From positions 1,884 to 65,883 of the forward strand of contig DCIJ01000078.1 of assembly GCA_002315945.1 (NCBI GenBank): a stretch of 64,000 nucleotides of DNA, in the 5' to 3' direction. This document shows positions 8,315 to 45,973 of the stretch, in pieces. The stretch's first letter is position 1. Each line of letters opens with the position of its first letter. The position numbers and the translations under genes were made by a program. The DNA is from Lachnospiraceae bacterium UBA1729. GTDB lineage: Bacteria > Bacillota > Clostridia > Lachnospirales > Lachnospiraceae. A model generated the notes under the pieces. The model saw only the letters and a program-made list of their open reading frames with translations, was not told where the DNA came from and did no database searches.

Positions 8315-9244
8315 TTATTCATATAAGTCGCCTGACAGATAATGATCACCATTATCAGCAAAGATAACTACAATATTTTTTCCTTTGTTCTCTACTCTCT
8401 TTGCCACCTGGGTAGCTGCATGTAGTGCTGCTCCGGCTGAAATACCAATGGAAAAGCCTTCAATCTTTGGAAGTTCTCTTGCAGCTTTGTAAGCCTGCTC
8501 ATCTGTCACATCAATGACCTCATTAAAGAGACTTACATCTGTAACTGGAGGAATTGCGCCTCCACCGATACCCTGAATCTTATGAGGTCCCGGCTCTCCA
8601 CCATTTAGTACTGCACTTCCGGTTGGCTCAACTGCAATTATCTGAACATCTGGATTCTTTTCACGCAGGAATTTTCCAACACCACTTATGGTTCCGCCTG
8701 TACCTGCTGCTGCCACAAAAATATCAACCTTACCATCCGTATCCTCCCATATTTCAGGACCTGTTGTCTTGTAGTGTGCACCAGGATTATTTGGATTGCC
8801 TCCCTGACCTATGACAACCGAATTCTCAGTCTGCTCTAAAAGCTCCTGTGCCTTGGCACCTGCACCTGCCATATTCAGCTCACCTGGAGTTAAGTAAAGT
8901 TCTGCGCCAAAGGATTTTAGAAGAGTTCTTCTTTCTATTGATACATTATCAGGCATAGCTATTTTTACCTTGTATCCAAGGGCTGCACCAATGGCTGCCA
9001 AACCTATTCCTGTGTTTCCACTTGTTCCTTCTATAATAGTGCCGCCCGGCTTGAGTTCGCCGCTTTCTTCTTTTGCACGGATTATGTTGTAAGCGATTCT
9101 ATCCTTTACGCTTCCGTTAGGATTGAAGTATTCAAGCTTTGCTAATAATTTTGCTTCCAGCTGTTCTTTTTTTTCATAATTTGTAAGTTCCACCAAAGGT
9201 GTCTTTCCTATTAACTCCAAAATACTCTGATAAATCTTTGCCAT
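8315..9244 (-). CDS. cysK: Cysteine synthase A (O-acetylserine sulfhydrylase)
   Basis: 309 aa. PLP lysine in NPNGSVKDR, GTSGNTGIGLA and the GTGGTISG loop. Confidence 0.92.
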   Translation of the reverse strand: MAKIYQSILELIGKTPLVELTNYEKKEQLEAKLLAKLEYFNPNGSVKDRIAYNIIRAKEESGELKPGGTIIEGTSGNTGIGLAAIGAALGYKVKIAMPDNVSIERRTLLKSFGAELYLTPGELNMAGAGAKAQELLEQTENSVVIGQGGNPNNPGAHYKTTGPEIWEDTDGKVDIFVAAAGTGGTISGVGKFLREKNPDVQIIAVEPTGSAVLNGGEPGPHKIQGIGGGAIPPVTDVSLFNEVIDVTDEQAYKAARELPKIEGFSIGISAGAALHAATQVAKRVENKGKNIVVIFADNGDHYLSGDLYE

Positions 9245-9362
9245 AATTTTTTCCTCCCTCTGTTAACATGATATTAATCTGCGTCTTTTTAACGCCTACC
9301 TTAGTAATAGGTTTTGTCTGTAAATGTATCTTATCATTACCATTCACGTTTGAATAATACGC
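9245..9362 (-). promoter_or_regulatory. Promoter and leader module (copy 2), near-duplicate of 5451-5536
   Basis: On the minus strand: GTATTATTCAAAC..ATGATAAGATACA (TAAGAT at 9328-9333)..AAAACCTATtactAAGGTAGG, then RBS GAGGGAGG. Confidence 0.6.
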
Positions 9363-9404
9363 AAAAAATAAGACTGGCTATAAATACAGCTTATACCCAG
9401 TCTT
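9363..9404 (-). terminator. Rho-independent terminator after the patB-like gene
   Basis: Minus-strand hairpin AAGACTGGGTATAAG..TTATAGCCAGTCTT followed by a T-run. The 3' arm (TTTATAGCCAGTC) resembles the terminator at 5537-5581. Confidence 0.75.
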
Positions 9405-9437
9405 TTGATATTTTTCTTCATTTACCATGAAACTATA

Positions 9438-10646
9438 TTAAATTGTCGTTTTTTCCTCAAAAGCATCCCTGATTCTATCCAGTGCCTCTGTAAGAACTGC
9501 CCTTGGGCAGGCTACATTAATCCGTTGGAATCCTTTTCCCACATCTCCAAAAATTGATCCACTGTCAAGCCACAGTCCAGCCTTGTGAATTATGAGATCA
9601 TCTATCTGTCTGTCACTGAGTCCATATTTACCAAAATCAAGCCATATCATGTAGGTTCCCTCAGGCTTTTTAAATACAACCTTTGGAAGATGTGTCTTTA
9701 TATATTCTTCAGCAAAATCAATATTTGCTTTAATATACCTGCTTACAGCTTCATACCATTCCTGTCCATGATCATATGCCGCCTGACTGGCAATGATGCC
9801 GGCAGCATTCAGCTGGCTGTAGCCAGAGGCATTATATGCTTTTCTGAACTTAGTATATATTTCCCTGTTAGGAATAAAAATGTTAGAAACCTGCAGCCCT
9901 GCAATATTAAAAGTCTTGCTGGGAGAGGTCGCTGTAATTGAAATTTTAGCATATGCCTCATCAAGCTTGGCAAACACCTGGTGATTGCCAGACCAGACAA
10001 AATCTGCGTGTATCTCATCGGAAAATACTATAACACCATGCTTAACACAGATATCCCCTATTTTTATTAATTCTTCTTTTGTCCATACTCTTCCAACAGG
10101 GTTATGAGGATTACACAAAAGAAAGAGTTTAACTTTGTTTTCAACTATTTTTCTTTCAAAATCTTCAAAATCAATTGTGTAATATCCGTTTCCATCATTT
10201 ACCAGATCACTGCTGATAAGTGTTCTTTCATTATCATTGATAACTTCGCTGAAAGGATAATATACCGGCTGCTGGATAAGTATTGCATCACCCTTCTTTG
10301 TAACTGCCCTCACAGCAGTTGCAATGGCAAATACCACTCCCGGAGTCTTGTGAAACCAGCTCTTGTGCACATCCCACCCATAATGATTATTTATCCATCT
10401 GTGAACACTCTCAAAATAATCGTCATCCACTTCTGTATATCCATAGATAGCATGTTGCGCCTGCTTAACAAGGGCATCTTCTATATATGAGGACGTCTTA
10501 AAGTCCATGTCGGCAACCCACAACGGAAGCACTCCCTCCGGGAGTCCCCTCTTTTTTGCAAAATCATATTTGAGGCATTTAGTGCCTTTTCTATCAATTA
10601 AGCTGTCAAAATTCAGATTTCTTTCTGCCATATTACTCACCAACAC
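9438..10646 (-). CDS. patB: MalY/PatB-family PLP-dependent C-S lyase (cystathionine beta-lyase type, aminotransferase class I/II)
   Basis: 402 aa. Starts with NFDSLIDRKGTKCLKYD, and SPSKTFNIAG contains the PLP lysine. Confidence 0.8.
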   Translation of the reverse strand: MLVSNMAERNLNFDSLIDRKGTKCLKYDFAKKRGLPEGVLPLWVADMDFKTSSYIEDALVKQAQHAIYGYTEVDDDYFESVHRWINNHYGWDVHKSWFHKTPGVVFAIATAVRAVTKKGDAILIQQPVYYPFSEVINDNERTLISSDLVNDGNGYYTIDFEDFERKIVENKVKLFLLCNPHNPVGRVWTKEELIKIGDICVKHGVIVFSDEIHADFVWSGNHQVFAKLDEAYAKISITATSPSKTFNIAGLQVSNIFIPNREIYTKFRKAYNASGYSQLNAAGIIASQAAYDHGQEWYEAVSRYIKANIDFAEEYIKTHLPKVVFKKPEGTYMIWLDFGKYGLSDRQIDDLIIHKAGLWLDSGSIFGDVGKGFQRINVACPRAVLTEALDRIRDAFEEKTTI

Positions 10647-10658
10647 TTCTTTTTTATT

Positions 10659-11828
10659 CTATCCATTAAAGGCCTGGTCTAAATCGCTAATCAGGTCATC
10701 AATATTTTCTATTCCAACTGACATCCTCAGTGTTCTCTCTGTCAGACCACTTTTTTCAAGCTGCTCCTTTGGTACATCTGCATGGGTCTGTGTAATGGGA
10801 TATGTTAGCAGGGACTCAGTTCCTCCAAGACTTTCAGCATATTGGACCAGTCTGATTTTTTCTAATATTCTCCTGACACTTTCCACACTGTCTACATCAA
10901 ATGCCAGCATTGCACCGGCACCCCTTGCCTGTTTTTTATTAAGCTCATATCCGGGATGTTCCTGAAGCCCCGGATAGATAACCCTTTTAACAATTTTCTG
11001 ATTTTTTAACCAGTTTGCAAGCTTCAAAGCATTCTCCTGCGCCCTGTCCAGTCTTACAGCCAGTGTCTGAATGCCTCTGATTACGAGCCAGCTGTCAAAG
11101 GGAGACAGATTTGCACCTACAGTTTTATAAGCAAACCTGAGTTTTTCTGAAATAGCTTCATCCCTCACAATTGTGAATCCGGATAAGGTATCATTGTGTC
11201 CTGAAAGATATTTTGTTCCACTGTGAATAACAATATCTGCCCCTAAATCCAGAGGATTCTGAAGATATGGAGACATAAATGTATTGTCCACTATGAGAAT
11301 AGCATTATTCTCGTGGGCTATTTTTGCTGTTTTTTCAATATCCGTGATATTCATTAGTGGATTCGTGGGAGTCTCGATAAAGAGTGCTTTTGTATTGCTC
11401 TTAATATATTTCGTAACATCCTCTTTACTGAAATCAATATAGCTGAATTCAATTCCGTTCTTTTCACTTATAGTTCTAAAAAGTCGTGTTGTTCCACCAT
11501 AGATATCCACATCAACAATTAAATGGTCCCCTGAATTAAACAGTTCCATTGTATTGGAAATTGCAGCCATTCCGCAGGAAAACGCGATTGCGTCTGTTCC
11601 ATGCTCAAGAGATGCTACTATTTTTTCCAATTGCTCCCGTGTAGGATTCTGAACCCTGGTATAGTCATAACCTGTACTCTGTCCCAGACCAGGATGCGCA
11701 AATGTAGCTGTCTGATAGATTGGCACGCTGATTGCCCCAAATCGCGCCTCCTTATTATCACGCTCCAAATGTATACATCGACTTTCTATTGCTAACGATT
11801 TACTCATATTTGTCTCCCCTTTTTCCAC
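10659..11828 (-). CDS. Cys/Met-metabolism PLP-dependent enzyme (cystathionine gamma-synthase / gamma-lyase / methionine gamma-lyase family)
   Basis: 389 aa. NPTREQLE, SGTKYLSGHND and SLGGTESL. Second member of this family in the cluster. Confidence 0.85.
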   Translation of the reverse strand: MEKGETNMSKSLAIESRCIHLERDNKEARFGAISVPIYQTATFAHPGLGQSTGYDYTRVQNPTREQLEKIVASLEHGTDAIAFSCGMAAISNTMELFNSGDHLIVDVDIYGGTTRLFRTISEKNGIEFSYIDFSKEDVTKYIKSNTKALFIETPTNPLMNITDIEKTAKIAHENNAILIVDNTFMSPYLQNPLDLGADIVIHSGTKYLSGHNDTLSGFTIVRDEAISEKLRFAYKTVGANLSPFDSWLVIRGIQTLAVRLDRAQENALKLANWLKNQKIVKRVIYPGLQEHPGYELNKKQARGAGAMLAFDVDSVESVRRILEKIRLVQYAESLGGTESLLTYPITQTHADVPKEQLEKSGLTERTLRMSVGIENIDDLISDLDQAFNG

Positions 11829-41788: not shown

Positions 41789-42703
41789 ATGAGAAATATT
41801 CAGGACTTATCAAATGCATTACCGCTATTAAAATGTCTGGGTTCAGATATCAGAGTAGCTATTCTGGAACTGCTAATTCAAGAAGGCCCTCAGCAGATGA
41901 GTGATATTTCCAGTAGTCTGGGTATCACTTCAGGTTCTCTGTCTCCACATATGAAGATGCTGGCAGACAATGGACTTATTAGTATAAAGTTTGATTCCGG
42001 CAAACGGGGAATTCAAAAGATATGCAGTATTGCTGAAGACAGAATCATAATAGATTTAGAAAATTATGAGAACAAGAACAATATGTACGAGGCTGAGATT
42101 GGGGTTGGACAGTATTCAGACTATAAGATTTATCCTACCTGTGGAATTTCCACTCCTGATCATGTAATCGGCGATGTTGATTCAGCCAGATTCTTTGCTT
42201 CTCCGGAGAGATTCAATGCTGGCATCCTTTGGTTCACTGAAGGTTATATTGAATATATGATTCCCAACTATATCACCGAATACCAGAGTGTAGTTGAACT
42301 GCTCTTTTCCTTCGAAATAAGTAGTGAAGCCCCAGGTGTTCGTGAGGACTGGCCCAGTGATATCCAGTTTTCAATCAACGGTGTGGAATTATGCACCTGG
42401 ACCTCTCCCGGTGACTTTGGAACCCACACCGGTATATATACTCCTGAATGGTGGAATCCCAACTGGAATCAGTATGGACTTCTCAAATTCCTTTCTATCA
42501 ACGAAACCGGTACTTATATTGATGGATTCAAAAAGTCGGATGTAACTATTTCCGAGCTTAATATCACTGCCGAATCCAGCATCAAATTGAGAATGACTGT
42601 ATCAAAGGAGAGTGAGCACTGCGGAGGTCTCACACTATTCGGCCGTTCCTTTGGTAACTATAACCAGGATATTAAAATCCGTATGCACTACAAAGAGACC
42701 TGA
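41789..42703 (+). CDS. ArsR-like winged-HTH regulator with a ~210-aa uncharacterised C-terminal domain
   Basis: N-terminal LKCLGSDIRVAILELLIQEGPQQMSDISSSLGITSGSLSPHMKMLADNGLI. I do not recognise the C-terminal Trp/Gly-rich part. Confidence 0.7.
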   Translation: MRNIQDLSNALPLLKCLGSDIRVAILELLIQEGPQQMSDISSSLGITSGSLSPHMKMLADNGLISIKFDSGKRGIQKICSIAEDRIIIDLENYENKNNMYEAEIGVGQYSDYKIYPTCGISTPDHVIGDVDSARFFASPERFNAGILWFTEGYIEYMIPNYITEYQSVVELLFSFEISSEAPGVREDWPSDIQFSINGVELCTWTSPGDFGTHTGIYTPEWWNPNWNQYGLLKFLSINETGTYIDGFKKSDVTISELNITAESSIKLRMTVSKESEHCGGLTLFGRSFGNYNQDIKIRMHYKET

Positions 42704-42743
42704 TGCAGATTTTCGTGCTGGCACGAATCTGCACTTGGACATC

Positions 42744-42765
42744 AAAAAAAACACCACACAGGTGT
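42744..42765 (-). terminator. Weak terminator after the three-gene cassette
   Basis: Minus-strand hairpin ACACC-tgtgt-GGTGT followed by T7. Confidence 0.45.
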
Positions 42766-42820
42766 CCTTATGGTAAATCGGGTAGGAGGTAGATAATTAT
42801 TTTATCTACCGACCTCCCAC

Positions 42821-42853
42821 AGCACCGTACGGTTCCGTATTCGGTGCTTTTCT
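42821..42853 (+). terminator. Plus-strand stem-loop plus T-run (terminator of the ArsR-like transcript or of a small RNA)
   Basis: GCACCGTACGG-ttc-CGTAttCGGTGC followed by TTTTCT. It is preceded by a second long hairpin at 42780-42818. Confidence 0.5.
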
Positions 42854-42970
42854 AGTTTTCAGTAATCCTCCGATTGGCGAACACTTCTACATACTCTTTC
42901 TGTTTTCCAGATACCAATTGCAGATAGTCCTCTATACAAAGTTGTCTGTCTTTAAATCCATCATTGGTTA

Positions 42971-43408
42971 CTATTCCAATGCTTTTTTTAGTCTGAAATT
43001 TGTCCTGCCAGATTTTTTTTCATTAGCGAGTTCATAAATCTCATCTTGTTGTAACAAAAGTCCACTTGGATTTCTGCCTATTATGATATATTGATTTACC
43101 GAATCTGAAGCTATATACTGTCGCATTTTATCATTTAAAAGAATATCGGCATTATCAATTACAAAGATCTTGCCATTACTGGTTGTTCTTTTGATAGCAG
43201 TCTTATAACCTTTATTTTGATCCAGATAGTTAAAGCATTTTATTCTCTTATCTTCTGCAGACAATTCCTGCAAAAAAGAAAAAACAGCAGACTTTCCAAC
43301 TCCTGAGTCGCCGACTATAAATGTTATATTCTGGGTCAAATCTAGGTCTACATCATAGGATGTATGCTTTGTAACTATTTTATTTGTAATTATCGGTTTA
43401 ATTTTCAT
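42971..43408 (-). CDS. Mini P-loop NTPase (Walker A and Walker B only)
   Basis: 145 aa. GDSGVGKS is Walker A and KIFVIDNAD is Walker B with DN instead of DE. There is no ABC signature. It overlaps the upstream gene by 11 nt. Confidence 0.7.
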   Translation of the reverse strand: MKIKPIITNKIVTKHTSYDVDLDLTQNITFIVGDSGVGKSAVFSFLQELSAEDKRIKCFNYLDQNKGYKTAIKRTTSNGKIFVIDNADILLNDKMRQYIASDSVNQYIIIGRNPSGLLLQQDEIYELANEKKSGRTNFRLKKALE

Positions 43409-43838
43409 CAGACCACCACTCCTTTAATTCATCGTAGGAATTAATATCAATAGTGCCTTTCTTTCCTACTGCTTTTACCTTTTTCATTTCAAATGAAATT
43501 AACGGATAATCACAAGTAATATTCCCGTTATCTAAGGAATAAATAACATCTAATGCATTTTCTCCACACTCTCGTATATCGAAGATCTTATCCTTGTTAT
43601 ACATAATATTAAGAACAGTTTTGCACCCAGTAGAAAGCTTATCAATATTTAAAATCCCACCATCAAAGCGCGATCTAATAGTAAATTTATCCACCATTTC
43701 AGACTGATCAATTTTAAAAATTATATCAATAGCCTTCTCATCAAGTTTTTCAGACGTATATTTATTAAAAAAAATATCATTAAGTTTAATCAATTCCATA
43801 TCTTTCGGTATAGTTTTCATTTTATATACTGCTATCAT
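43398..43838 (-). CDS. Small protein with an ABC-signature-like segment and no P-loop
   Basis: 146 aa. LSTGCKTVLNIM resembles the LSGGQ-type signature. IFDIRECGENALD follows 13 aa later and resembles a degenerate Walker B plus D-loop. Confidence 0.55.
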   Translation of the reverse strand: MIAVYKMKTIPKDMELIKLNDIFFNKYTSEKLDEKAIDIIFKIDQSEMVDKFTIRSRFDGGILNIDKLSTGCKTVLNIMYNKDKIFDIRECGENALDVIYSLDNGNITCDYPLISFEMKKVKAVGKKGTIDINSYDELKEWWSDEN

Positions 43839-44527
43839 AATAGTCCTACCCCGCTAAAAGATTTTTTTAACGACGATTTCTCAACAAGCGTTTTTCTCTT
43901 CATTTCATGATCTAAACGATCGACATCCAAACCACAAATATCATCTGACTTCCTTTTTGTCCAAGTACAGCAATCATTAACAAAACATTCCCCAAGCTCA
44001 CTTTTATCGGTTTCAAAACCCGTATTTCTTGTAATATCCCTAATCAATGAAGCTGCAAGCTGCTCAGAATTCTTACTTACATCGTATTTTGTCAGTTTCC
44101 AGAATAGTTTGCGTTCTTCATTGTCAATTCCTTCAAATATCATTTTCAAAAATATTTCTCGAGCCAAGAGATAATTTTCTCTTTTATCCTTTAAGTTGTC
44201 TTCTTTTGCAAATACCCATTCTCCTAATAGTTCAAATGACAACAATGCAAATTCAAAAGAATGGATTTTAACTATGTATACATTATCCTTGGCCTTAGCA
44301 ATTTTATTTACTCTTTGTGTCTCGCGCAATACATCTATATTATCCATCGGCATATCCATGAACACATAATATATGTTGTCATCTTCAGGAATCTGCTCTA
44401 CTGCTTTCCTCAGCTCCGAATTATTCTTTTTTGACTGTACAATTATTTCTTTGTCTAAAACCTCAAATATTTTGCACCAAAATTCGTATCCGGCACCAGT
44501 GTCCTCACACCATACATATTTTTTCAT
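43835..44527 (-). CDS. Putative Toprim/DUF4435-like domain protein
   Basis: 230 aa. KKYVWCEDTGAGYEFW has an acidic residue after strand 1. YYVFMDMPMDNID is DxD-like, and IHSFEFALLS follows. It overlaps the next gene by 4 nt (ATGA). The assignment rests on motif resemblance only. Confidence 0.45.
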   Translation of the reverse strand: MKKYVWCEDTGAGYEFWCKIFEVLDKEIIVQSKKNNSELRKAVEQIPEDDNIYYVFMDMPMDNIDVLRETQRVNKIAKAKDNVYIVKIHSFEFALLSFELLGEWVFAKEDNLKDKRENYLLAREIFLKMIFEGIDNEERKLFWKLTKYDVSKNSEQLAASLIRDITRNTGFETDKSELGECFVNDCCTWTKRKSDDICGLDVDRLDHEMKRKTLVEKSSLKKSFSGVGLL

Positions 44528-44547
44528 CCAGTACTCCTATATTGTTC

Positions 44548-44829
44548 TCATGCGAATTTCTTTGATTCATGTATCAAGACGCAACCATCCATATATCTGG
44601 AATAATACTTAATCTGGAGTTTTTCCTTAATCATTATATCAAAGCCATCAAGATAATATAATGCAAACCATTGACTTGTCTGATTACCAAGTGGTAGCCC
44701 TTTGCCTGGAGCAACTTCATAACTATCAATGATTAGATACAGTAGTTCTAATACCTCAACATCTTTAACCCAGGACTTTAATTTATTTTCTCCCTTTTTC
44801 AGGAAAGTGTCCCTAATGCTTAGGAACAC
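44548..44829 (-). pseudogene. Reverse transcriptase remnant (motifs 4-5 only)
   Basis: GKGLPLGNQTSQWFALYYLDGFD is RT motif 4. YSRYMDGCVLI is motif 5 with YMDG in place of YxDD. Motifs 1-3 and the thumb are absent, and the upstream flank is AT-rich non-coding sequence plus a terminator. Confidence 0.7.
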
Positions 44830-44936
44830 CTAATACTATGAATAATACCACATTTTATACATTTTTTATTTATTTTCCTAGTGTGGGATTTATTTTTACT
44901 TACTGATTTTCTCTTTGAATTAGATTTGAATTTTAG

Positions 44937-44967
44937 AAAAGCCCTTAGCTTTTGACTAAGGGCTTTT
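44937..44967 (-). terminator. Terminator after the K+ channel gene
   Basis: AAAAGCCCTTAG-N7-CTAAGGGCTTTT. Confidence 0.8.
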
Positions 44968-45049
44968 CTCTACTTAATTCCAAACAATTTACCCAACTTG
45001 GCTTGTCTACCTTGTTTGGTTGTTGGTATTCCACTTTTCTTCTTTGCCA

Positions 45050-45781
45050 TTACTTTGTATCCGCCTTCTTACCCTTAAGTTCTTCTAATTCTTCTTGATA
45101 ACCAGCAATTATAATACCAGCTGGTAAAGCTACAATTGCAACTCCTAAGATAGCAGATATCATTGTAATAAACTTTCCAATATCACTTGTAGCATACATA
45201 TCTCCATAGCCAACAGTAGTTAAGCTAATTGTAGCCCAATAAATAGCATCGTACATTGTCTTAAAAGTCTCTGGTTCAGCATTGAAAATAACCAATGCTG
45301 ATACAAGCACATAAGCTATGGCAAATCCAAATACAACCATTAAGCTGTCCCTTTGTTTCCTAAAGACATTTAATACCATATTGATGTTCTTTGAATATCT
45401 GAAAGCCTTAAATACTCTAAATACCTTGAATGTTCTAAATAGTCTAAATATCTTCAGTAGACGATATCCATCAGCAAGCACAGTTAATGATGGTAAAATT
45501 GAAAGCAGGTCAATAATTGCCATGAAACTAAATGGATATAATAAGAAAGATAATATTCCTCTATTAAGCTTGATATCAGCGGTAGCAAGTCTTAGTAAAT
45601 AATCTACAATAAATATTACAACTGTTACTTTGTCTATTACATTGAACAGCGAGTTAGTACTATGTGTCCATAATGGAATGATACTTATTATTATGGTCAA
45701 CATCATAAACACATCATAGACTCTGCTGGCTTTATCTTGTTCTGTTCCTACTTCAATAATTTCATAAAATCTTTTCCTCAT
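45050..45781 (-). CDS. Voltage-gated-type (6TM) potassium channel
   Basis: S4-like RLLKIFRLFRTFKVFRVFKAFR and the selectivity filter TTVGYGD. Confidence 0.85.
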   Translation of the reverse strand: MRKRFYEIIEVGTEQDKASRVYDVFMMLTIIISIIPLWTHSTNSLFNVIDKVTVVIFIVDYLLRLATADIKLNRGILSFLLYPFSFMAIIDLLSILPSLTVLADGYRLLKIFRLFRTFKVFRVFKAFRYSKNINMVLNVFRKQRDSLMVVFGFAIAYVLVSALVIFNAEPETFKTMYDAIYWATISLTTVGYGDMYATSDIGKFITMISAILGVAIVALPAGIIIAGYQEELEELKGKKADTK

Positions 45782-45947
45782 TGGCTAATTGCTCCTTGCA
45801 TCTATAGGTTGAGTATATCCTTTTTAGATACTTGGTTGCAAGCATAAGAATTTCACTCCTCGTACGACCAGTTGCTGAAGCTACCTTATCAAGATCCTCA
45901 AGCATGTTCTTTGGCATCCTCATTGATACAACTGAACTTTCACCCAT
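45762..45947 (-). CDS. Ribbon-helix-helix (CopG-like) protein
   Basis: MRMPKNMLEDLDKVASATGRTRSEILMLATKYL fits the RHH strand-helix-helix pattern. It overlaps the channel gene by 20 nt. The exact start is uncertain (45947, 45923 or 45917). Confidence 0.55.
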   Translation of the reverse strand: MGESSVVSMRMPKNMLEDLDKVASATGRTRSEILMLATKYLKRIYSTYRCKEQLANEEKIL

Positions 45948-45973
45948 TAGAGCGCGCCCATGGCGCGTAAACC

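Follow-up and report, generated by a model that had tools for sequence, protein, structure and literature searches.

AbiL and RloA-RloB combine a small ATPase with a Toprim-like protein and classically lie inside type I restriction-modification (R-M) loci. OLD proteins (Class 1, P2 Old and TsOLD; Class 2, GajA of Gabija) consist of an N-terminal ATP-binding cassette (ABC)-type ATPase that controls a Toprim nuclease at the C-terminus; a recent phylogeny of the family contains 11 uncharacterised clades, and GajA has been described as a nucleotide sensor that works without hydrolysis (PMC12796447). In PARIS, the ATPase and the Toprim protein are encoded by separate adjacent genes, which are sometimes fused (PMC10568477). 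We analysed a 64,000-nucleotide stretch of contig DCIJ01000078.1 from Lachnospiraceae bacterium UBA1729, referred to below as the window, which carries a cassette of three small, overlapping minus-strand genes, A, B and C (the trio), that recalls these systems:

43835..44527, minus strand: gene A, open reading frame (ORF) of 230 residues; putative Toprim-like metal-dependent nuclease, helical in its C-terminal region and with a cluster of four Cys
43398..43838, minus strand: gene B, 146 residues; DUF4869, predicted compact ABC-head-like pseudo-ATPase with the signature LSTGCKT and without a P-loop
42971..43408, minus strand: gene C, ORF of 145 residues; minimal P-loop nucleoside triphosphatase with Walker A GDSGVGKS, Walker B IDNAD and a GRNP segment

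Genes A and B overlap by 4 nt (ATGA) and genes B and C by 11 nt (ATGAAAATTAA), and a fragment of a reverse transcriptase (RT) gene lies 20 nt upstream of gene A. This layout had been described in an earlier account made from the letters of the window (the sequence-only reading); its coordinates were confirmed, and the motifs it quoted for A, B, C and the RT fragment are all present in the ORF translations.

The trio resembles the ATPase-Toprim systems of the OLD, PARIS and AbiL types, yet qualifies clearly as none of them. OLD proteins are 500–700 residues long and have a complete ABC domain with its own signature and a helical insertion, whereas here an ATPase of about 140 residues lacks a signature, which is found on a separate pseudo-ATPase. 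Toprim domains of OLD proteins are among the best fold matches of gene A; OLD models and P2 Old show no significant sequence similarity to A, to C or to the fusion proteins of a sister system described below, and the DxD motif of OLD is not found here. OLD ATPase and Toprim parts lie in one polypeptide or in adjacent genes (Class 4), and their candidate counterparts are adjacent in the window and fused in the sister system, with both domains below significance. In PARIS (AriA, an ABC ATPase; AriB, a DUF4435 Toprim nuclease) ATPase and effector are encoded separately and side by side, as in the trio, and DUF4435 is the sole recurring, though sub-threshold, Pfam match of the gene A family. AriA, however, is a complete ABC ATPase of about 55 kDa with coiled-coil elements, a third subunit bearing only a signature is lacking in PARIS, the PADLOC models of AriA and AriB miss B and A and match only the P-loop region of C, and gene A of the window has no DUF4435 or AriB match. 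AbiL/RloAB (an AAA_21 ATPase with RloB) shares with the trio an association with type I R-M loci, the trio standing between hsdS and hsdR in one lineage of metagenome-assembled genomes (MAGs), but has two genes and a larger ATPase where the cassette has three genes and a far smaller one. Pfam gave no RloB (PF13707) and no above-threshold AAA_21 match for the window proteins; one gene A homolog is named 'RloB-like protein' in UniRef, and Pfam scans did not reproduce RloB.

The module is absent from PADLOC v2, NCBIfam likewise matches neither A nor B, and DUF4869, PF16163 and five RefSeq accessions belonging to the two-gene form are not mentioned by any paper in the literature searched. The trio is undescribed, and its pairing of a minimal P-loop subunit with a signature-only third subunit is genuinely unusual. 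The explanation that we prefer, tentatively and with slightly more doubt than confidence, is that A-B-C is an autonomous, horizontally mobile three-gene module, a variant of a wider two-gene DUF4869 system, in which B and C would share one composite ATP site and A would act as a nuclease, probably in defence.

Conservation and genomic setting of the trio

A pattern scan of one genome per species yielded 39 loci, mainly from rumen and gut Clostridia, together with two from Anaerolineae and one remnant from Paludibacteraceae. Full-length A, B and C stand in this order in 30 of the 39, five others keep intact B and C with a damaged A, and four are remnants or loci cut by contig ends. The B/C overlap is present in 36 of 36 distinct loci and measures 11 nt in 29 of them and 4–35 nt in the others. 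An A-B-C order with B/C overlaps on dozens of unrelated contigs is far beyond chance. The trio is a genuinely conserved unit, and the sequence-only reading, which saw it as translationally coupled and without a named system, is upheld in this.

The gene A family comprises 205 clusters at 90% identity (226–248 residues among the top 120 listed) and, more widely, 471 representative clusters at 50% identity; gene B is represented by 461 clusters (133–152 residues among the top 120 listed) and gene C by 433 (142–151 residues, likewise among the top 120). Not a single B-C fusion was seen among the homologs listed, and the window copies of A, B and C keep every invariant residue. The three genes are conserved full-length families and not decay products. 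Pseudogenisation, by which frameshifts would have broken a single larger ATPase-nuclease gene into A, B and C, had been considered in the sequence-only reading, and could draw on the superficially frameshift-like overlaps and on the single C-A polypeptide of the sister system; we give it next to no credence, given the constant full length and the conserved starts, stops and overlaps over hundreds of clusters, the intact invariant residues in the window, and an A-B-C arrangement that is not collinear with the sister's B followed by C-A.

The surroundings of the trio vary. In a sheep-rumen MAG it is inserted in a type I R-M operon, with hsdS on one side and hsdR on the other; it lies in Ruminococcus sp. 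NK3A76 beside a type III R-M pair, in [Clostridium] aminophilum beside Fic, PDDEXK_9, Mob_Pre and IS605, and at one further locus near AAA_15, HipA and SocA genes; it is also found in polysaccharide loci. A census of the immediate neighbours at 38 loci, two genes to either side, counted 134 Pfam families in 145 proteins, none of which occurs more than three times. With neighbours this varied, the trio has no constant partner and behaves as a mobile accessory cassette.

Damaged copies, with gene A shortened or internally deleted or with only short remnants of A, B and C, were seen at eight loci (L038, L040, L041 and L043–L047). They point to frequent loss, as expected of accessory genes.

Genes B and C and a candidate composite ATP site

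Gene B carries LSTGCKTVLNIM and IFDIRECGENALD and is a member of Pfam DUF4869 (PF16163), which it matches with 40.2 bits (E 3.7e-10), the cut-off being 28.9, and which all listed gene B homologs carry as well. Its AlphaFold2 (AF2) model has a predicted local distance difference test score (pLDDT) of 94.9, and the top 50 Foldseek matches in the PDB are nearly all ABC-type heads, including SMC3, Rad50, PtuA of retron Ec78, AriA and the nucleotide-binding domains of ABC transporters. The only invariants across both forms of DUF4869 are S, G, K and T of an LSxGxKT signature (LSTGCKT in the window, LSGGVKT in canonical DUF4869), one Phe and a CG(D/E)N loop. In the model, the signature starts a helix (70–80) that is followed by a strand at the Walker B position (84–87) and then by a helix at the D-loop position, i.e., this region is arranged as in the signature region of ABC proteins. 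Walker A (GxxxxGK[ST]) is absent from gene B, where the equivalent helix begins 'LNDIFFNKYT', and the P-loop and Walker B positions are degenerate across the family. Judged by its model, gene B does look like an ABC/SMC-type head with the signature kept and the P-loop lost, which is how the sequence-only reading had described it.

In gene C, the Walker A motif is invariant as GDSGxGKS (GDSGVGKS in the window), and in the Walker B motif IDNAD (IFVIDNAD in the window), invariant as well, 60 of 60 sequences have Asn where the catalytic Glu would stand. A further invariant segment, Q-x-hhhh-G-R-N-P, resembles the H-loop strand of OLD and AAA_15 proteins, with Arg replacing the H-loop His. The signature motif is absent from gene C, and the alignment of invariant residues thus upholds the earlier observation of Walker A and B motifs without a signature; of the full ABC-type set expected in one domain, gene C has Walker A and lacks both the signature and the catalytic Glu. 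Its N-terminal part gave weak profile matches to AAA_15, GajA, AriA, PtuA, LmuB, Rad50 and SMC_N, and its top matches in the defence library are the ABC-type heads GajA, AriA, PtuA and LmuB, all sub-threshold in PADLOC. The AriA model matches only residues 19–132 (E 1e-4), AAA_21 reaches only E 0.026, and alignment of the gene C profile with hhalign to the ordinary AAA_15/21 and ABC_tran proteins of the fetched loci was not significant.

In the sequence-only reading, B and C were the parts of one ATPase split in permuted order. This fails because B and C, with more than 400 clusters for each, are always separate genes of constant size (133–152 residues among the top 120 listed), because no homology between them is detectable (hhalign probability 0.4), and because the sister system fuses C to A and not to B. 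A better description is that of two distinct nucleotide-binding-domain-like subunits, of which one is degenerate. Duplicated halves were also considered and rejected, as the same comparison shows that B and C are not paralogs.

Since gene C has all elements of an ATP site but the signature and gene B has essentially the signature only, the simplest model is a B:C heterodimer with a composite site. Gene C would be a stripped-down ABC-type nucleotide-binding domain that binds ATP by its P-loop and has no signature of its own, gene B would be an ABC-head-like pseudo-ATPase with a degenerate P-loop and a retained LSxGxKT signature, and the single ATP site of the heterodimer would be built from Walker A and B of C and the signature of B. 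Completion of an ATP site in trans by the partner's signature is known from asymmetric ABC and SMC heads (heterodimeric ABC transporters, SMC/Rad50), from which the presumed partners in the trio differ in that each is without half the motif set, that there would be a single site, and that they measure about 145 residues each and have no coiled coils or transmembrane domains. The fixed replacement of the catalytic Glu of C by Asn suggests a switch driven by binding; the trio would likely respond to ATP binding and not to its turnover, as proposed for GajA (PMC12796447), whose loss of hydrolysis parallels the Glu-to-Asn change in gene C.

The two-gene DUF4869 system and gene A

Two of the loci, L040 and L018, harbour a diverged second system besides the trio, in which a canonical DUF4869 gene (189–199 bits, LSGGVKT) is followed by a fusion gene. 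In L040, the DUF4869 gene (189 bits) precedes a gene for a 322-residue protein whose residues 11–136 correspond to the C profile (hhalign E 1.8e-8) and whose residues 159–306 correspond to the A profile (E 2.2e-8), and the canonical DUF4869 proteins of L040 and L018 align to the gene B profile. The same pair, annotated as 'DUF4869 domain-containing protein' and 'hypothetical protein', occurs on replicons of Ruminococcus albus 7 (pRUMAL02, RUMAL_RS19445/19450), Agathobacter rectalis (V3C14_RS19090/19085) and Collinsella aerofaciens. A metagenome scan with the gene B alignment returned at least 519 DUF4869 loci, the best 80 of which were inspected; 63 show DUF4869 with a C-like and then an A-like segment behind it, 8 are too short and 9 are variants or remnants, i.e., the order DUF4869, C-like, A-like is found in 63 of the 72 loci with enough downstream sequence. 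At the level of sequence, this shows DUF4869 to be an obligate partner of C and A. The two-gene system is much more widespread than the trio and equally uncharacterised.

The two forms are thus alike in DUF4869, the C-like P-loop and the A-like acidic domain, with hhalign E-values of about 1e-7 to 1e-8 and tight linkage, and differ in that C and A form one polypeptide of 320 residues downstream of DUF4869 in one and are encoded by separate genes, in the order A-B-C, in the other. Eight aligned fusions keep a GxSxTGKT P-loop, a canonical Walker B FIDE and the Arg at the H-loop position, as well as E166/D167, D213 and E240/E243 in the A-like domain. Compared with them, the trio has 'DN' in C where the fusions have 'DE', 'FDIRE' in B where canonical DUF4869 has 'FNAS', and an extra Cys cluster in A. 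The fusion shows that C and A act together, in the domain order of OLD nucleases; alignment of the fusion profile with phage P2 Old by hhalign gave no Toprim match, only the N-terminal strand and the P-loop being aligned (E 0.028). Two architectures, one with C and A fused and one with A, B and C separate, fit the known plasticity of the ATPase-Toprim theme, as seen in PARIS (PMC10568477).

The two forms show a reciprocal exchange of acidic residues at the Walker B position: 'IDNAD' in C goes with 'FDIRE' in B in the trio, and 'FIDE' in the C domain with 'FNAS' in B in the two-gene form. In L018, the canonical DUF4869 gene and a C-A fusion shortened to 184 residues, which ends right after 'EDSNSGFEFF', occupy 8458–9533, and about 470 nt further downstream stands an intact A-B-C trio (10001–11558), the two related systems standing in tandem.

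Gene A carries KKYVWCEDTGAGYEFW, YYVFMDMPMDNID and IHSFEFALLS. Its AF2 model (pLDDT 91.8) consists of a β-α-β-α-β-α-β core followed by a helical region. Among 63 family members, with identities down to 20%, the sole invariant positions are E8, D58 and E92, and D9 and three cysteines are nearly invariant. In the model, E8 follows strand 1 (3–7), D58 ends strand 3 (52–58) and E92 lies just after strand 4. These positions match in outline the Toprim pattern as defined by Aravind et al. 1998 (cited in PMC12796447), with membership of gene A in Toprim/DUF4435 unproven and the evidence for it weak. In Foldseek, OLD Toprim domains rank 2 and 5 (E 0.019–0.036), and the top matches also include flavodoxin, TIR, CheY-like receivers and other three-layer α/β folds, with E-values equal to those of OLD; AriA and AriB are among the fold matches of the trio proteins, the A and B models having been searched. 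DUF4435 appears below threshold in 9 of 62 and in 2 of 63 gene A family members (best E 6e-6) and AriB in one of 63 (4.7e-4), and PADLOC gave no consistent family for 63 diverse members. Searches of PDB sequences with profiles of the three proteins, of the wider A family and of the fusions yielded nothing significant, and comparison of the gene A model with a viral fold library was uninformative. From the fold and the acidic residues we infer that gene A may be a Toprim-like metal-dependent nuclease with an acidic site formed by E8/D9, D58 and E92.

Stand-alone A proteins have in addition an invariant or nearly invariant Cys cluster, C-x4-CC-x10-C (C181, C186, C187 and C198; window 43934–43987), which is absent from the A-like domain of the fusion proteins and which may be a zinc site; residues 181–198 are modelled with lower confidence (pLDDT about 81). 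One family member matches PADLOC Ppl at 1e-39. Another protein, P0485 (384 residues), has an A-like N-terminus (2–142) and, joined to it, an ABC half at the C-terminus whose signature, Walker B and H-loop are canonical (LSNASAGQK...LLLDQPEDDLD...VVTHNAN), and is either a natural fusion or an assembly chimera.

Candidate function and the upstream region

In the preferred explanation, ATP-dependent engagement of B and C would serve as a sensor or switch that restrains or licenses gene A, and the module would likely act in anti-phage or anti-mobile-element immunity, possibly by an abortive route, by analogy with OLD, Gabija, PARIS and AbiL. A role in defence or abortive infection appears most likely from the family resemblance, the behaviour as a mobile cassette, the low GC content, the frequent decay and the occasional embedding in R-M loci; by this analogy it is plausible but unproven. 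The broader proposition that DUF4869 systems are a widespread, wholly unstudied immune family of gut and rumen anaerobes, in which a two-polypeptide minimal ABC switch gates a divergent Toprim-type nuclease, we put forward as possible though rather doubtful.

Several observations weigh against the preferred explanation. The Foldseek scores of gene B are modest (best E 1e-3, probability 0.9, TM-score 0.36–0.39), and hhalign of its profile with ordinary ABC/AAA_21 proteins (ABC_tran and AAA_15/21 from the fetched loci) was not significant, the top alignment, itself not significant, placing LSGGVKT on the AAA_21 signature region. Assignment of gene C to the ABC class is weak, with scores below gathering (AAA_15, 21 bits against a cut-off of 32) and further matches to the non-ABC P-loop families AAA_22, AAA_14 and nSTAND. 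Gene A of the window has no match in Pfam, NCBIfam or PADLOC and no significant sequence match to any Toprim, OLD, RloB or AriB model; its family profile aligned with phage P2 Old at a probability of 0.3 in hhalign, without a Toprim match, and the Foldseek TM-score of its model to OLD Toprim is only about 0.3. A strict DxD is missing from gene A, the second Asp standing at +4 (D62) and being absent from the fusions. Of the Toprim/DUF4435 pattern that the sequence-only reading had seen here, the acidic residues E8, D58 and E92 proved invariant, and DUF4435 itself was recovered below threshold only. As regards context, type I R-M genes are immediate neighbours at only about 3 of 38 loci, i.e., a defence setting is occasional, many trio loci lie in polysaccharide or housekeeping regions, and a relative was found on only one IMG/VR contig.

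The missing profile match of gene A, the fold matches that it shares at OLD's E-values with flavodoxin, TIR and CheY-like receivers, and the generic P-loop matches of gene C would suit a reading in which A would be no nuclease and B and C no pair of the ABC type, the three forming an unrelated complex, e.g., a nucleotide- or metal-dependent enzyme with a Rossmann- or flavodoxin-like subunit, and the motifs being convergent. We judge this to be quite improbable, as the matches of gene B are nearly all ABC heads and its conserved LSxGxKT falls right where the signature helix begins, the fusions place the ATPase before the A-like domain as in OLD, the acidic E/D/E residues are the sole invariant residues of gene A, and DUF4435 recurs as the only biologically sensible sub-threshold family.

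A third possibility is that the architecture is as proposed and the role is not immune, the module being a selfish addiction or toxin-antitoxin (TA)-like element or an accessory DNA/RNA-processing device for variable surface-polysaccharide or mobile-element regions. Many loci lie outside defence islands (in clusters for polysaccharide biosynthesis, or, as in the window, among housekeeping genes), small helix-turn-helix or ribbon-helix-helix (RHH) genes lie directly upstream in several loci, as in TA modules, and Cran1, an archaeal member of the OLD family, has its role in cell-cycle progression rather than defence (PMC12796447). Against this, the patchy distribution, low GC content and frequent decay argue against a core cellular function, the embedding in a type I R-M operon and the nearby conflict genes fit immunity, and all characterised bacterial systems of an ABC ATPase and a Toprim protein are defensive (PMC10568477); a non-immune role is unlikely on balance, though it has to be taken seriously.

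If true, the defence explanation would provide a function and a mechanism for DUF4869, a domain of unknown function for which gut and rumen metagenomes contain several hundred loci or more, and would add a new defence candidate from under-sampled anaerobic Firmicutes. The theme of OLD, Gabija and PARIS would be extended to a radically minimised form in which two tiny proteins share the ATP site. Such a system would be the smallest OLD-like sensor-effector known, a naturally occurring 'split-site' ABC ATPase and a tractable model for nucleotide or trigger sensing by composite ABC sites. The fused C-A and the separate A, B and C, with their reciprocal Walker B changes, constitute a ready-made comparative experiment.

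The remaining features of the region are the following:

44548..44829, minus strand: RT fragment, ORF of 93 residues with a GTG start; palm motifs 4–5, YMDG
45050–45781, minus strand: ion-channel gene of the voltage-gated type (Pfam Ion_trans 1e-25, Ion_trans_2 2.5e-13)
45762..45947, minus strand: small RHH-like ORF of 61 residues, similar to the ORF upstream of gene A in relatives
42747..42769, minus strand: terminator-like hairpin with a T-run, about 200 nt downstream of gene C, from a consensus scan
42900..45950, no strand: low-GC islet with the cassette, the RT fragment, the ion-channel gene and the RHH-like ORF

The RT fragment does derive from an RT (phrog_1423, E 3e-23; PADLOC Drt3a, E 2.6e-9) and carries GLPLGNQTSQ and YMDG. 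It spans about positions 143–207 of the 417-position Drt3a profile, i.e., palm motifs 4–5 only, where an intact RT would have motifs 1–7 with YxDD and be conserved beside its effectors. The sequence-only reading had linked it to the trio, and its place 20 nt upstream of gene A on the same strand, together with an AEP-RT protein two genes upstream of the trio in L014, would favour a decayed retron, defence-associated reverse transcriptase (DRT) or abortive-infection (Abi) system with A, B and C as effectors. A counterpart was found beside none of the other trios (0 of 47 loci examined, which contain no homolog of it), the census of 38 loci revealed no recurring RT among the neighbours, the RT of L014 is of a different family, the closest kin of the fragment are RTs of Butyrivibrio and Faecalibacterium phages (47–55% identity), and the closest relatives of the trio have an RHH-like gene directly upstream instead. 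The RT fragment is an incidental remnant outside the module, and the idea of it as a functional partner is very hard to credit.

In these closest relatives (L041 and L048–L050), a small RHH-like ORF ends about 45 nt upstream of gene A, and in L004 an ORF with a weak RHH_1 match lies upstream of the trio. The RHH-like ORF of the window, which has no Pfam match, is 69% identical over residues 2–40 to the upstream ORF of L041 and L048–L050 and is separated from gene A by the channel gene and the RT fragment. It is possibly a displaced regulator of the cassette, and the arrangement points to an insertion of the channel gene and the RT fragment, or to a rearrangement, between this regulator and the cassette. 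Its C-terminus has diverged and overlaps the start of the ion-channel gene.

In L014 (4541–9747), an 839-residue AEP-TOTE primase and RT (RVT_1) protein and an 896-residue protein without a Pfam match are encoded directly upstream of the trio on the same strand. The RT fragment of the window gave no match to L014 in tblastn, and the two proteins probably constitute a separate conflict system, consistent with co-location of conflict genes and not with functional coupling.

Upstream of the RT fragment, AT-rich non-coding sequence extends back to a hairpin at about 44945–44975 that follows the ion-channel gene and looks like its terminator. A promoter scan gave a signal no better than in shuffled sequence; the promoter of the trio probably lies within or just upstream of the RT fragment. 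The hairpin at 42747..42769 has weak evidence in its favour, three terminator-like sites having been observed by the consensus scan where 1.5 were expected by chance. The 270-nt spacer 3' of gene C (42703–42970), for which no match was found among the fetched loci, contains two hairpins and short ORF remnants, e.g., '...EDYLQLVSGKQKEYVEVFANRRITEN*'. The AT-rich islet that the sequence-only reading had placed at 42.9–45.0 kb is indeed low in GC and reaches further, to about 46.0 kb: between 42.9 and 45.95 kb the GC content is 0.327, compared with 0.406 for the median of the window and 0.370 for its 5th percentile, and no other 3-kb stretch of the 64-kb window is lower. The ion-channel gene, with a GC content of 0.32, equals the cassette in this respect.

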